DNA of 60,400 nucleotides from a virus. The DNA lies in IMG/VR virus record IMGVR_UViG_3300045988_043806; one strand, written 5' to 3'. Shown piece after piece: positions 16,232 through 21,603 of this stretch (its first letter is position 1; every line of letters begins with the position of its first letter). The position numbers were made by a program, and so were the translations under genes. The notes beneath the pieces were generated by a model that made no database searches, was not told where the DNA came from, and worked only from the letters and a program-made list of their open reading frames with translations.

Positions 16232-16287
16232 AACTCACTATATTGAGTTGTTTGAGTATATACTAACACGTAGTAGGTAGGTGTCAA
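16232..16287 (-). promoter_or_regulatory. promoter cassette P1 (-35 TTGACA, -10 TAGTAT) with downstream inverted repeat
   Basis: Minus strand TTGACA(16287..16282)-N16-TAGTAT(16265..16260), then AACTCA-N6-TGAGTT (16232..16249). About 40 nt are near-identical to P2 and similar to P3. Confidence 0.6.
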
Positions 16288-16320
16288 TACCTTTATTCAC
16301 AAAATCTCAATTTTTTGAGT

Positions 16321-16641
16321 TTACTTTTCAGGTGGTACTATTTCGAGAGAATATCCCATAGAATTTATGACGTGCTCAATAATTATGAATCTTGCAGAAT
16401 CATCCTCTGTATCAGCCGCTATATCTTCCAGCTTTGTTATATCCGGCTTTCCATCCTGCGTCAGTTTAATTTCAAAACCAAGACCGTCCGCAATTTTTTT
16501 GATTGTTCCATAGGTTGGTGATACTCCCACATTCAGTTTGTACCACAGATTCTGCCTAGTCCATCCGATACGTTTTGCCGCCTCCTCGTATGTGATACCA
16601 TTATCGAGCATATACTGCTTGAATTTTTCTATAATATCCAC
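16321..16641 (-). CDS. HTH DNA-binding protein (candidate regulator of the repeated promoters)
   Basis: 106 aa. HTH at ITYEEAAKRIGWTRQNLWYKLN. Last gene of the P2 operon. Confidence 0.6.
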   Translation of the reverse strand: MDIIEKFKQYMLDNGITYEEAAKRIGWTRQNLWYKLNVGVSPTYGTIKKIADGLGFEIKLTQDGKPDITKLEDIAADTEDDSARFIIIEHVINSMGYSLEIVPPEK

Positions 16642-16644
16642 TGC

Positions 16645-16839
16645 CTACACCTCCACAAAATTGAATTTTGGATGTTTCTTTCGCTCCTCGCATTTCTGGA
16701 ACCACTCCTGCACCTTTTCTGCACAGAAATCTTTCCCGGCTGTATATTTCCCACTCGAAAAAATAATGCCACTTTCACTGTCAATTTCGTGAATCCAGTA
16801 CACATATCCCCCCATAATTCGGTTGTACTGAAATTTCAT
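16645..16839 (-). CDS. hypothetical protein
   Basis: 64-aa ORF. Overlaps the upstream ORF by 59 nt. Confidence 0.4.
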   Translation of the reverse strand: MKFQYNRIMGGYVYWIHEIDSESGIIFSSGKYTAGKDFCAEKVQEWFQKCEERKKHPKFNFVEV

Positions 16840-17026
16840 ACCACTTTCCGAATCTATCGGTCGGAAATGTCAAGAAATCGCATCCCGGCTTTTTGGTGTA
16901 GTCAAGCTGCATCTGGTCGAATATCCAATCTGCCAATTCGTCCAGATTTTCAAACGTCTTGTCGAACGCTTTCTGGTTATAATCGTTATAATACTTTACG
17001 ATTTTTGCTGTTATCATTACGCACAT
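16781..17026 (-). CDS. hypothetical protein
   Basis: 81-aa ORF. The C-terminal part overlaps the next ORF, so a frameshift relationship is possible. Confidence 0.4.
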   Translation of the reverse strand: MCVMITAKIVKYYNDYNQKAFDKTFENLDELADWIFDQMQLDYTKKPGCDFLTFPTDRFGKWYEISVQPNYGGICVLDSRN

Positions 17027-17316
17027 TCCTCCTGGTATTTATATTTTATGCCCTGCATATTCTCTTCCCATTTGGCAGACTCGGGCGTTAATTTTACGAA
17101 CTGTTCTACAATCTCTAACAGTTCATCTTCGTCCAGTTCCGCCATCGGGCAGCCGTATTTGCTTTCCAACTCTTCCTGCTCCTCATCCAGGAACAGATAG
17201 TCCTCTCTCAATGGCGGCGGCTCTTCATCATCCCACTGGCTCCGCCTGCGTGGTGGGTTTTCAAATTCTTCTCGCCTGCGCTCCCAGTATTCGTCCTTAT
17301 CCGGTATATTCCACAC
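17017..17316 (-). CDS. hypothetical acidic protein
   Basis: GTG start at 17316, 6 nt after AAGGAGG. The longer track ORF (to 17436) would overlap the upstream gene by 119 nt. Confidence 0.45.
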   Translation of the reverse strand: MWNIPDKDEYWERRREEFENPPRRRSQWDDEEPPPLREDYLFLDEEQEELESKYGCPMAELDEDELLEIVEQFVKLTPESAKWEENMQGIKYKYQEECA

Positions 17317-17317
17317 T

Positions 17318-17866
17318 TTAGTCCTCCTTGAGATTCCCCAGGATTTCATCTGCCCTTTGCATAATCTCTGCAAATTTATTGTTTGCCTCTTCCATCTCCT
17401 GGCGTTTTTTCTCTCTTGCCTTGTAAAATTCTTCATTTTTCAGCTCATCTTCCCACCCATTTATGAACTGTCGAACCTCCCGGACATTATTAAACCCGCA
17501 TTCGTTTTCATAGTCATTTCTGGCTGTGAAGATAACGTATTTCTTTTCCCTGCGCTTATCATCAATGGCAACTCCGAAATACAACTCATCTCTCTGCTCC
17601 TCATCAAGAGGCTCGAATCTTACATCATCATAAAGTGGACCGACCATCGGGCAATTATTTTTGAACCACACCCGGTAGTTATCCAGTATGTAATCGCTTG
17701 TGATACCTTTCAGAATCCCCCAGATTTTCGCCAATCTTCCTGCAAGTGCCTTATCATCGCAAAACCAGTCATACCAGCCTGTCTCAATCTGTGTTTCTCT
17801 GTCTTTCGCAAGGAAATCTCCCTTGCGGTATCTCTCGCAAAACTGTCTTAATGTCATATCTGCCAT
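17318..17866 (-). CDS. hypothetical protein
   Basis: 182-aa ORF with ordinary protein-like composition ([36 protein letters not shown]...). Confidence 0.55.
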
Positions 17867-17877
17867 AGCTGTTCCTC

Positions 17878-18072
17878 CTATTGTTCATCGTTTGTGCTCA
17901 TCGCCTTGTGCTCCACTCTCCGGCGTTCAGACCTTGCTTTCTTTTTCAAGTTCCTTTTCCATCTTTTGATTGTCTGTGCTTTTGTATGATTCCGAGAAAA
18001 ATCGTAATCATCCAGAATGTATCTCCCTCCGCTTTCTCTTTCTCCGTATGCGTGCATCTTTCTCCGGCTCAC
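17878..18072 (-). CDS. small basic hypothetical protein
   Basis: 64-aa Arg/Lys-rich ORF. Confidence 0.4.
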
Positions 18073-19708: not shown

Positions 19709-20375
19709 CCTGCTCGCCTCCCTCTTCCGGTAAATACTCAACTTTAATGTGAGCCGCCATGAAGCAATCAGGTTCTCCGTCAAATTCGTTGCCTGCGGAT
19801 GAGTTGAGCGTATCTCCTCTTTCCTCGCAGCACTCTCTCGGACTGCAACAGTCTGTATTCTTCCAGAGCTTTCCGTTTTCATCCTCATACACGTACCGTC
19901 CCCAATCATCCCTGCCGATATATTTCAGATGCAATGTTTTAATCTTTACAGCAGCCAATTCATAATTGATAACATCAAAATGTCCGAGCGGCTTTTTGTA
20001 TTCGATATAGCCCCATGCCTGGCAGCCTACTTCCTCAACAAACTTTTTATTGTCGAAGTTCTCAATCTCCAGGACTTCGTTATTTTTTGGCTTCGGGTAT
20101 CCTCCCGGCATGATTGGACGCTGTGTGCTGTAATACCTGTACCCTGCCGGGGAGATTTTCTTTTCTTTCGCATCAGGGTAATGTGCTATGACATCCTGTT
20201 TCGCATCCTCTATTGTTTTGAATGGTCCTGTCCCTGCGGCTCCTTTTCCCTTGTCCTCATCATAAAGAAAATGATTGTGGTATCCATCAACGTCCTGGAC
20301 TATTGCGATATGATTCACGTATCCATCATCCATATGCAGTGCTGAATGAAACATTGCTACAATATTCGCCATCAT
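19701..20375 (-). CDS. hypothetical protein (polyvalent-protein-like domain?)
   Basis: 224 aa. The YRYYSTQRPIMPGGYPK motif resembles domains of large polyvalent proteins of conjugative elements and phages (family uncertain). Cys-rich C-terminus. Confidence 0.5.
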   Translation of the reverse strand: MMANIVAMFHSALHMDDGYVNHIAIVQDVDGYHNHFLYDEDKGKGAAGTGPFKTIEDAKQDVIAHYPDAKEKKISPAGYRYYSTQRPIMPGGYPKPKNNEVLEIENFDNKKFVEEVGCQAWGYIEYKKPLGHFDVINYELAAVKIKTLHLKYIGRDDWGRYVYEDENGKLWKNTDCCSPRECCEERGDTLNSSAGNEFDGEPDCFMAAHIKVEYLPEEGGEQDG

Positions 20376-20425
20376 TTGTATGTCCTCACTTTCTGCCCTC
20401 GTACCCTCCGGGGCGGGTAACTGTT

Positions 20426-20740
20426 TTATAATTCAAATGCCATTGCTGCATCTTTCTCCGATGCTCCCTGTTCCATGCAGGCGTTGTATCTCATCAACTG
20501 CCGTTCCTCTTTAATCTCCCTGATTCTCTTTAAGGTTGGCCAGTCCACCAATGCGCCCACGCAATACGCCTTTTCCATAAGCTCCTCGACTTCGCTGATT
20601 CTTTCCTGGACCTCATCCCACTGCTCGTCTGTATATGTGTGTGCCGGTGCCTCCTGCATGTCAATTTCGATGCATTTCAGCTTATCGTGCATCGAATACA
20701 GGTTGAAATGTTCGCTCTCGTTTACTCTGTACTTTTTCAT
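20426..20740 (-). CDS. hypothetical protein
   Basis: 104-aa ORF in operon context. Confidence 0.5.
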   Translation of the reverse strand: MKKYRVNESEHFNLYSMHDKLKCIEIDMQEAPAHTYTDEQWDEVQERISEVEELMEKAYCVGALVDWPTLKRIREIKEERQLMRYNACMEQGASEKDAAMAFEL

Positions 20741-20754
20741 CAGCTCTGCTCCTC

Positions 20755-21243
20755 CTAAAACATAGTATCAAGAATCCTCTGGATAAGTTTTTCGCTTTCC
20801 TCAACCAACTGTTTGTTATGTCTGTTGTCCTGCACAGCCTGCTTAAATTCTGCGCTATCCGGATTGTCCGCAAATTCAACAATTTTTCTGGCGGATTCTT
20901 CTGTTCTTCTTATCGCCTCCGCCTTGCTATCAATAAGAATAGCTTTTATTGCGCCAGCCTCTTCCAACGTGAGAACTTTCTGTTCAAGTTCTTCGACAGT
21001 TCTCTTCTCTGCTTCATAATCTTTCACTGCACTTTCGTACATTTCTTTATATTTTGCTGCCTCTGCCGCCGAACTTTCGGCTCTCTGTTTCATGCTGCAT
21101 CCGAAATCATTTTCAATGTTTCCCTCGGCAATTTCAAAGCATCCCTCAAATGCCATGCTGATATAGCTATCCTCTCCAAGGTCTGTCACGATTTTTTTGA
21201 TTTTTTCCAACGCTTTCCGTTCCTGCTCTTTGGTTGCTGCCAT
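20755..21243 (-). CDS. hypothetical coiled-coil protein
   Basis: AGGAGG 8 nt before ATG 21243 (MAATKEQERK...). The track start 21282 is a GTG without an RBS. Confidence 0.5.
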   Translation of the reverse strand: MAATKEQERKALEKIKKIVTDLGEDSYISMAFEGCFEIAEGNIENDFGCSMKQRAESSAAEAAKYKEMYESAVKDYEAEKRTVEELEQKVLTLEEAGAIKAILIDSKAEAIRRTEESARKIVEFADNPDSAEFKQAVQDNRHNKQLVEESEKLIQRILDTMF

Positions 21244-21290
21244 CTCTATGTCCTCCTGCATTCCGCTCTTGATTTCTTCCACCGCCCTGC

Positions 21291-21337
21291 TATAATAAAA
21301 GGGTAAGGCTTGGCGGTGGCAGGAACCGCCTTACCCT
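21291..21337 (-). terminator. intrinsic terminator between leader ORF and the P3 operon body
   Basis: Minus strand AGGGTAAGGC-N18-GCCTTACCCT (10-bp stem; the loop holds a nested GGCGG/CCGCC pair) followed by TTTTATTATA. Confidence 0.6.
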
Positions 21338-21358
21338 TATTACGGATTGGAAACCCTC

Positions 21359-21502
21359 TTACTTACCAGGTGTCGGGGTTTCCTTTTTTAATACCTCAAT
21401 TTTCTTTCGTATGATGCCTGCGGCATCTTCTCCGGTCTTTGCTTTCAGCTCCACGTTTTCTGCTAATGTTTCTAAAAATAAAATCAACTCTGTCTGTGTC
21501 AT
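21359..21502 (-). CDS. small leader ORF (47 aa)
   Basis: Hand-translated MTQTELILFLETLAENVELKAKTGEDAAGIIRKKIEVLKKETPTPGK. GGAGGA 7 nt upstream. Lies between P3 and the terminator. Confidence 0.35.
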   Translation of the reverse strand: MTQTELILFLETLAENVELKAKTGEDAAGIIRKKIEVLKKETPTPGK

Positions 21503-21547
21503 TTTAAATTCCTCCATGTACTCTTAACCTCCTGCCTTGGTTTATTC

Positions 21548-21603
21548 CAACTCGTTTTATTGAGTTGTTGACATTATAATAACACGTAGGTTAGTAGTGT
21601 CAA
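21548..21603 (-). promoter_or_regulatory. promoter cassette P3 (-35 TTGACA, -10 TATTAT) with inverted repeat
   Basis: TTGACA(21603..21598)-N16-TATTAT(21581..21576), then CAACTC-N8-GAGTTG (21548..21567). Confidence 0.6.

Follow-up and report, generated by a model that had tools for sequence, protein, structure and literature searches.

The phage genome and its promoter cassettes

This analysis concerns the 60,400-nt viral record IMGVR_UViG_3300045988_043806 of IMG/VR (the window, by which we mean this whole stretch of DNA), and within it three promoter cassettes, P1, P2 and P3, each accompanied by an 18-bp inverted repeat of the form AACTCA-N6-YGAGTT. The window holds the complete genome of a temperate phage and is terminally redundant, its first 55 nt recurring at 60346-60400, which gives a circle of 60,345 bp. 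An unannotated human-faecal record, MT835491, is 99.6% identical to it, and related prophages reside in several Blautia genomes, among them Blautia sp. MSJ-19 and sp. MSJ-9, in Clostridium sp. OF09-36 and in further genomes of Lachnospiraceae type. Nearly all genes occupy the minus strand. In the direction of transcription, the structural genes extend down to about position 24600, and the structural module ends with the lysin gene (23069-24577; Phage_lysozyme2 and Amidase_2 domains), which has a strong terminator on its 3' side (23047-23011). Two small genes precede the minus-strand block that holds the three cassettes (21603 to 9282), beyond which lie the serine integrase gene on the plus strand (7228-9054) and the lysogeny switch. 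The switch comprises R1, a plus-strand cI-like helix-turn-helix (HTH) gene (6660-7019), and R2, a divergent cro-like HTH gene on the minus strand (6233-6475) with an operator-bearing promoter. The 119-aa R1 protein combines an N-terminal Cro/C1-type HTH, with the helix GRAEGNTGSWKAG, and a C-terminal 'DFLRTHMV' domain. Beyond R2 come the HTH gene R3 (5750-6211) and then RecT, exonuclease, DnaD-like and DnaC-like genes, and another HTH protein of 106 aa, R4 (16321-16641, minus strand), is encoded by the last gene of the P2 operon. The genome holds five HTH candidates in all.

An earlier note, made from the letters of the window, had placed three promoter cassettes on the minus strand, and all three are present. 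Their core promoters share the -35 hexamer TTGACA, a 16-nt spacer and a TG-extended -10. P1 (16260..16287) consists of TTGACA at 16287-16282, the spacer cctacctaCTACGTGT and TAGTAT at 16265-16260; P2 (18673..18700) has TTGACA at 18700-18695, the same spacer cctacctaCTACGTGT and TATATT at 18678-18673; P3 (21576..21603), which is conserved in relatives, has TTGACA at 21603-21598, the spacer ctactaacCTACGTGT and TATTAT at 21581-21576. With scores of 10/12 for P1 and 11/12 for both P2 and P3, they rank first, second and fourth among the 52 promoter-like (sigma-70-like) matches in 5000-24900, P1 being tied with four other sites. The 22-mer TTGACACCTACCTACTACGTGT, which spans the -35 and the spacer, is present twice where 0.00 copies would be expected, and CTACGTGTTA has exactly three occurrences, all of them in the cassettes. 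P1 and P2 share an exact run of 34 nt and agree at 41 of 42 positions with one mismatch; P1 and P3 are alike at 21 of 30 positions from the -35 into the -10. The best reading of these likenesses is that P1-P3 are paralogous copies of one strong promoter of the host sigma-A type, with start sites predicted from the consensus hexamers, and the description of the elements as promoter-like, paralogous and conserved well past the hexamers holds.

The same note had given the repeat as AACTC-N6-8-GAGTT. The repeat is real and occurs in three copies, but it is tighter than that formula, being a fixed 18-mer in which the spacing is always N8. Matches to AACTC-N5-9-GAGTT number exactly three in the 60.4 kb against 0.15 expected, all with N8, and none of 100 shuffled sequences reached three. 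When every 18-mer of the window was scored against the 12 defined positions of AACTCA-N6-TGAGTT, six sites reached at least 11/12, compared with 0.13 expected per genome and a maximum of two in 100 simulations; these six all lie in 6623-21566. Three more sites score 10/12, a number that is not by itself above chance. All nine fall within 6592-21566, and most of them are centred on promoters.

The copies that define the cassettes lie on the minus strand just downstream of the -10 hexamers. The P1 operator (16232..16249; AACTCAatatagTGAGTT, 12/12) is located 10 nt past the -10, and the P3 operator (21549..21566; AACTCAataaaaCGAGTT) 9 nt past it, at about +3..+20. The P2 operator (18654..18671; AACTCAtaagaaCGAGTT) is only 1 nt past the -10, at about -5..+13, and overlaps the expected start site. 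Further copies accompany them on the same strand. A second operator-like site at P2 (18632..18649; AACACAcaaaagTGAGTA, 10/12) lies 22 bp downstream of the first, abuts the ribosome-binding site (RBS) and is conserved in relatives. Upstream of P1, an operator-like site (16304..16321; AACTCAaaaaatTGAGAT, 11/12) directly follows the R4 stop codon, and the corresponding element upstream of P2 (18718..18734) consists of AACTCAttttttGAGCT with N7 spacing and a T-run, which makes it operator-like, a weak terminator of the P3 operon, or both. These upstream sites sit about 60 bp upstream of the predicted starts, and their centre-to-centre distances to the downstream operators, 72 bp at P1 and about 64 bp at P2, correspond to roughly seven and six helical turns. 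The second gene of the P1 operon has a weak match (15953..15970; AACTCAcaaaaaTGAGCA, 10/12) between its RBS and its ATG, which may be due to chance.

Two related structures were observed in diverged relatives. In the prophages L003 (4170-4235), L081, L082 (470-535), L085 and L086 the element upstream of the second cassette is an intrinsic terminator with an 11-13-bp stem and a T-run, the inner stem and loop of which read CTCA-ataaaa-TGAG, so that the same motif is built into it. In the phages L016 (~827-841), L019 and L082 (~2886-2900) a shorter palindrome, AGAACTCAGAGTTCT (AACTC-N1-GAGTT), lies 30 nt downstream of the operator in the cassette linked to R4.

The remaining copies of the motif belong to the lysogeny switch. 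O1 (6592..6609) fills the spacer of the cro-like promoter, between TTGACC at 6615-6610 and TATAGT at 6592-6587 on the minus strand; it reads AACTCAtagtttTGAATA in the window, and its right half is TGAGTA in all relatives. O2 (6623..6640; AACGCAttttttTGAGTT, 11/12) lies 31 bp from O1, between the cro-like -35 and the R1 RBS. O3 (6872..6889; AACGCAaaatagTGAGTT, 11/12) lies inside the R1 open reading frame (ORF), 249 bp from O2. The three-turn phasing of O1 and O2 recurs in 14 diverged cassettes, which carry second sites 29-31 bp downstream. The earlier note had contained neither the three switch copies, nor the upstream copies at P1 and P2, nor the second downstream copy at P2.

Three peculiarities of the switch region deserve separate mention. 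At position 6607, within O1, the window has a single G-to-A change (TGAGTA to TGAATA) in the otherwise invariant GAG core; over 126 nt nothing else distinguishes the window from MT835491, and none of the other relatives examined shows the change, which may represent either an operator-down ('vir'-type) mutation or a sequencing error. O3 encodes the linker peptide (T)QNSEL, which is conserved in relatives of 54-60% identity while the surrounding linker varies, and the DNA site may thus constrain the R1 protein sequence. Finally, direct repeats, ATCTTTA / ATCTTACA, are present at 6553-6585, in the leader that separates the cro-like gene from its promoter. They are conserved between the window and the loci L076, L211 and L212, whose repressors are 54-60% identical, and may be candidate binding sites for the cro-like or another protein.

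Conservation of the cassettes and the nature of the repeat

The conservation of the repeat was assessed independently of its own sequence by scanning viral contigs and 185,579 genomes for the promoter pattern TATTGACA-N8-CTACGTGTTA, which makes no demand on the repeat. With three chance hits in unrelated DNA removed, 36 distinct cassette contexts were obtained, in which the flanking proteins range from 99% down to 31-62% identical to those of the window, or are unrelated to them. The repeat is present in 35 of these contexts, at +1 (19 contexts), +9 (12) or +10 (4) nt after the -10. Its 17 distinct versions all retain AACTCA as the left arm, together with the CTC/GAG core, and differ freely in the 6 nt of the centre.

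These data bear on the possibility that the likeness of the cassettes is the mere trace of a recent duplication or recombination of one promoter segment, in which neither the repeat nor the spacer has a regulatory role. The 34-nt run of identity between P1 and P2 would be expected from such an event, and gene replacements map beside the cassettes, which may be simple recombination joints. On the other hand, cassette and arms persist where the flanking proteins have diverged to 31-62% identity or have been exchanged for unrelated ones, the 6-nt centre and the flanks diverge freely, and the motif recurs independently in the switch. We regard an origin of this kind, with no function attached, as highly improbable.

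Could the conserved element be a structure in the RNA? The earlier note had allowed for a 5' RNA structure as an alternative to an operator, and a leader hairpin might act as an mRNA stabiliser, as a processing site or as the target of an RNA-binding regulator. Repeats of the P1 and P3 types, located 9-10 nt past the -10, would indeed be transcribed; for the corresponding hairpins, energies of -4.9 and -7.8 kcal/mol were predicted (z-scores -2.0 and -2.9); almost every copy has a centre rich in A on the sense strand; and in diverged prophages CTCA-N6-TGAG tops real terminator hairpins. The pattern of substitutions speaks against it. All 13 departures from the arms affect the right arm, and every one of them breaks pairing (A.C or A.A), with no compensatory change among the 17 versions. 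The geometry of the transcript is equally unfavourable: in the commonest arrangement, the P2 type of 19 contexts, the left arm occupies about -5..+1 relative to the predicted start, hence it would not be in the transcript and no RNA stem could form, and the O1 copy lies in an untranscribed promoter spacer. The P2 hairpin is itself marginal (five pairs; -6.1 kcal/mol and a z-score of -1.3 for the 48-nt leader fold), the stem-loops in the leader folds containing the repeat are weak, at five or six pairs, and Rfam 15 gave no family match at E<=1 across 5500-23500. The RNA-structure alternative does not survive this comparison, and we consider a leader hairpin a very remote explanation.

Everything points instead to the 18-bp repeat being a protein-bound DNA operator, presumably read by a symmetric dimer. 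Put more broadly, we hold it to be very probable that some HTH protein of the phage uses the repeat as its operator.

The promoter spacer is conserved in a different manner. It has the form (CTAC)n-GTGT in every cassette, both in the window (16266-16281, 18679-18694 and 21582-21597) and in all related ones, and is literally CTACCTACCTACGTGT in two prophages (L081 and L086); a scan anchored on the repeat yielded just two mild spacer variants. Inspection of the spacer by eye revealed no consistent palindrome or half-site, and the CTAC repeats contain no operator half-site. Its GTGT can be read as a Gram-positive -16 region together with the extended -10.

Candidate binding proteins

Which of the phage proteins could read this operator? 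The earlier note had proposed four HTH proteins as candidates. Those encoded at 6233-6475 (R2) and 5750-6211 (R3) are disfavoured by a survey of 77 loci (926 kb) that were fetched through R3 homologues and most of which also carry an R2 homologue; 16321-16641 (R4) is left as a contender, and 6660-7019 (R1) is singled out. In the survey, sites of at least 11/12 occurred only where the R1 recognition helix has the form G(N/A)TGxWK, apart from one stray hit. Loci with closer R2 and R3 homologues and a different R1 helix lack the motif, so that neither the cro-like protein nor R3 qualifies as the specific binder. Where the R1 helix is GNVSKWK, the same promoter position is occupied by AACGCAC..TACGCT, and another R1 helix type goes with AATAGT..ACTATT.

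The association extends to more distant switches. Searching with a DNA pattern of the cro promoter and its operator brought up additional switches, and beside each of them was an R1-family gene of 35-58% identity. Of the 39 distinct R1-family entries that a scan with the conserved C-terminal motif DFLRTHM produced, 21 have an (N/S/A)TGxW(K/R) helix, and every one of these has a site of at least 10/12 within 110 bp upstream of the gene; among the 18 entries with other helices, none has a site of at least 11/12. Helices of the STG type pair with AGCTCA half-sites. In alignments the variable R1 segment falls on the recognition helix of Cro/C1-type HTH proteins. Pfam gives a weak HTH_26 match for R1 residues 6-59, and the profile search against the PDB matches the HTH domain only, with 3bs3 and, weakly, the 434 repressor.

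The position of R1 agrees with this correlation. R1 is co-oriented with the integrase gene and divergent from the cro-like gene, by which it would be the lysogeny repressor, and operators lie between R2 on the minus strand and R1 on the plus strand. Shutting the cro-like promoter is required of any lysogeny repressor, and O1 sits exactly there. Given that the motif is embedded in the cro-like promoter and tracks the R1 recognition helix, the likeliest candidate for the regulator is the phage's general immunity repressor. We therefore favour, with a probability of roughly 65%, the reading that the 18-bp AACTCA-N6-YGAGTT is the operator of R1 and that P1-P3 are R1-repressed early promoters. Physical binding by R1, repression as the direction of its effect, the timing and the start sites are what we infer from the sequence. 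The earlier proposal of a dedicated common regulator for three operons stands in so far as a single HTH regulator is indicated; 'dedicated' does not fit a motif that is the operator of the switch.

Several observations weigh against assigning the repeat to R1. The diverged contigs 089534 and 081933, which contain the block, yielded no R1 homologue, with the qualification that they look partial and that peptide-pattern scans miss family members. At the locus L186 the motif is accompanied by a helix that diverges, SSNIARLK. An autocleavage domain is not recognisable in R1, whose sequence therefore does not show how induction would occur. The strong conservation of (CTAC)n-GTGT is not accounted for by an R1-operator model; moreover, all cassette loci were ascertained through the conserved spacer, the variability of which is consequently under-sampled, relatives with other spacers falling outside the sample. 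An R4 homologue is found immediately upstream of one cassette in every block examined, and R4 homologues that are only 31-33% identical keep the predicted helix 'TRQNLWxKLN' while the operators are identical.

A related concern, that diverged block phages might lack a cI-like protein altogether, which would have favoured R4, was dismissed: the exact-peptide scans behind it had given false negatives, and the complete circular diverged block phage 110162 encodes an R1 homologue of 60% identity with the helix GNTGGWK and has three switch sites. Clostridium phage Maintenon and MT835477, both of which share the 'primase' of the block, have neither cassette nor motif; FP_Toutatis was not included in this comparison.

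The last two of the points raised against R1 belong to the case for R4, which might bind the repeat instead of R1 or beside it, as an autorepressor that shuts P1-P3 after an initial burst, in the way of Aca proteins repressing acr promoters or of Cro sharing operators with CI. The arrangement of the P2 operon resembles that of Aca-type operons in having a strong promoter with a palindrome, small unknown genes including that of the DarA_C protein, and, at the 3' end, a small HTH gene, here R4, with the inverted repeats at P2. In diverged phages the R4 ORF even runs through the upstream repeat and the -35. Against this, the motif in the cro-like promoter and in the cI-like gene tracks the helix of R1 and not that of R4, and there are 58-kb contigs that have an R1-type, motif-bearing switch but on which no cassette was found. 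A second, unrelated helix of the same 12-base specificity would be a less parsimonious assumption. R4 gives only generic HTH_31/HTH_3 matches in Pfam, searches of Pfam and of PDB sequences detected no similarity to a solved structure or a known Aca family, and a search of 5.8 billion proteins returned near-identical homologues only. The genes upstream of R4 have no family hits; in general family libraries the sole anti-defence-like domain is DarA_C, in the P3 operon. We consider binding by R4 unlikely.

A combination of both proteins can also be imagined, in which the cassette would be a portable dual-input promoter module. Its palindromes would respond to the immunity repressor, and the spacer, the palindromes or both to R4, providing an immediate-early burst and self-shut-off of a swappable block of anti-defence or early genes, with the cassettes doubling as recombination joints for Lachnospiraceae phages. 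In a variant of this scheme the palindrome may work at both the DNA and the RNA level, as it tops terminator hairpins in relatives. Such a module is a doubtful proposition at present, and we retain repression by R1 as the preferred explanation.

The 12-kb block and comparison with known systems

The three operons, 21517 to 18735 (P3), 18618 to 16321 (P2) and 16216 to 9282 (P1), together make up a 12.3-kb block, in line with the earlier statement that they cover its whole length. The designation of the block as accessory is only partly apt: it lies at the far prophage end, but it carries genes for an SSB (10640-11053), a PHROG 'primase'/DUF3560-like protein (14779-15702) and, in the P3 operon, a DarA_C protein (19701-20375). 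DUF6291 (18735-19013) and DUF6273 (13356-14348) proteins are encoded on the same minus strand, and a terminator-like hairpin (9109-9082) closes the block. Where relatives are integrated, the prophage ends with the block, in which four small genes come after the SSB gene, and host genes follow; a search with SSB homologues for genomic context likewise placed the block at the prophage end adjoining host genes, though it recovered only close relatives.

Mosaic replacements occur near the cassettes. In L002 and L004 other DNA takes the place of the segment downstream of P3 (20755-21238), and in L004 the P2 cassette is immediately followed by an insertion of 270 nt (4308-4577). The cassettes may act as recombination joints. 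In the contig IMGVR_UViG_3300045988_081933 (L011, 3136-4021), tail-tube and DUF6096 genes directly follow the SSB end of the block, which reflects either an unusual gene order or a misassembled contig. Elsewhere in the window, a second lysin-like gene with an endolysin-family match (5003-5605) is part of the early operon just downstream of R3, and two adjacent ORFs (59189-59896, phrog_13964/506; 59915-60334, phrog_2577) match phage 'transposase' families, suggesting an insertion-sequence-like element within the phage genome; the local G+C content falls to 33%.

Under the preferred reading, P1-P3 would fire upon infection, before the repressor builds up, and would express the 12-kb block of early genes, including SSB, DarA_C, the PHROG 'primase' and many unknowns. 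In the lysogen, R1 would occupy the operators of P1-P3 together with O1, O2 and O3. With operators placed over or just after the transcription start, with upstream sites at P1 and P2, and with one more site 22 bp downstream at P2, bound R1 would block the binding or the escape of RNA polymerase, and the block would be silent along with the cro-like lytic promoter.

If this is true, the 12-kb block consists of repressor-controlled early genes and not of lysogenic-conversion cargo, which alters the reading of SSB, DarA_C and the genes of unknown function. The regulation of temperate phages of gut Lachnospiraceae (Blautia and its relatives) is essentially uncharacterised, and none of the papers listed by a full-text search on repressors and operators of Blautia prophages mentions Blautia; nor did any publication dealing with this phage or with the switches of Blautia phages come to light. 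The analysis provides a testable repressor/operator pair, the protein encoded at 6660-7019 and AACTCA-N6-YGAGTT, a predicted immunity regulon of four promoters, and a rule that connects (N/S/A)TGxW(K/R) helices with ACTCA/GCTCA half-sites across dozens of metagenomic phages. The compact promoter-operator cassettes, predicted to be very strong, could serve as repressible expression parts for Lachnospiraceae. As a contribution to annotation this would be useful; the kind of phage regulation is an ordinary one and involves no new principle.

How does the system compare with those already known? Aca HTH autorepressors control acr operons in which a strong promoter with inverted repeats round the start drives variable small genes followed by a small HTH gene at the 3' end. 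The layout of the P2 operon with R4 at its 3' end is of this kind, but R4 shows no similarity to the known Aca families or to solved structures in Pfam and PDB sequence searches, no known anti-CRISPR gene was recognised with general libraries, and the repeat is common to the lysogeny switch. The stoperators of mycobacteriophages L5 and Bxb1 are asymmetric 13-bp sites that number dozens per genome, lie inside transcription units in one orientation and act on elongation. The two systems would have in common one immunity repressor with many sites outside the switch; here, however, the sites are fewer (six significant and three to four weaker ones), palindromic and, apart from O3, centred on promoters.

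Closer parallels are offered by the small CI repressors of Gram-positive phages that use three spaced operators, one of them intragenic, such as lactococcal TP901-1 CI (OR, OL and OD), and by phi105 of Bacillus with its intragenic sites. Shared with these are a small, non-cleavable HTH repressor, a divergent cI/cro-type gene pair, and a close pair of operators with a distal one a few hundred bp off. The operator sequence differs, and sequence and profile searches against the PDB detected no relationship of R1 to these repressors. To our knowledge, no extra set of three distal promoter cassettes has been described for phages of this type.

The lambdoid CI/Cro systems (lambda OL/OR, 434, P22 c2) have operators of about 17-18 bp over strong early promoters. 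The window resembles them in its palindromic operators, both at the cI/cro switch and at early promoters elsewhere, in the presence of multiple phased sites, and in a repressor gene that is divergent from the cro-like gene and encodes an N-terminal Cro/C1-type HTH. Four promoters would be under operator control (the cro-like one and P1-P3) compared with two in lambda; three near-identical cassettes are added at the far prophage end, after the lysis genes; the operators of P1-P3 lie downstream of the -10 and not across the hexamers; and one operator is inside the repressor ORF. The 119-aa repressor has no S24/LexA-type cleavage domain recognisable by Pfam or by the PDB profile search, and R1 would accordingly stand outside the lambda CI protein family proper (HTH plus S24 domain). 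Functionally, with binding deduced from these correlations, the predicted system is nonetheless a CI/Cro-type repressor-operator regulon: a dyad operator is present in several copies, it overlaps the core promoter or the predicted start, its switch copies lie beside the integrase gene, and it co-varies with the recognition helix of the repressor.

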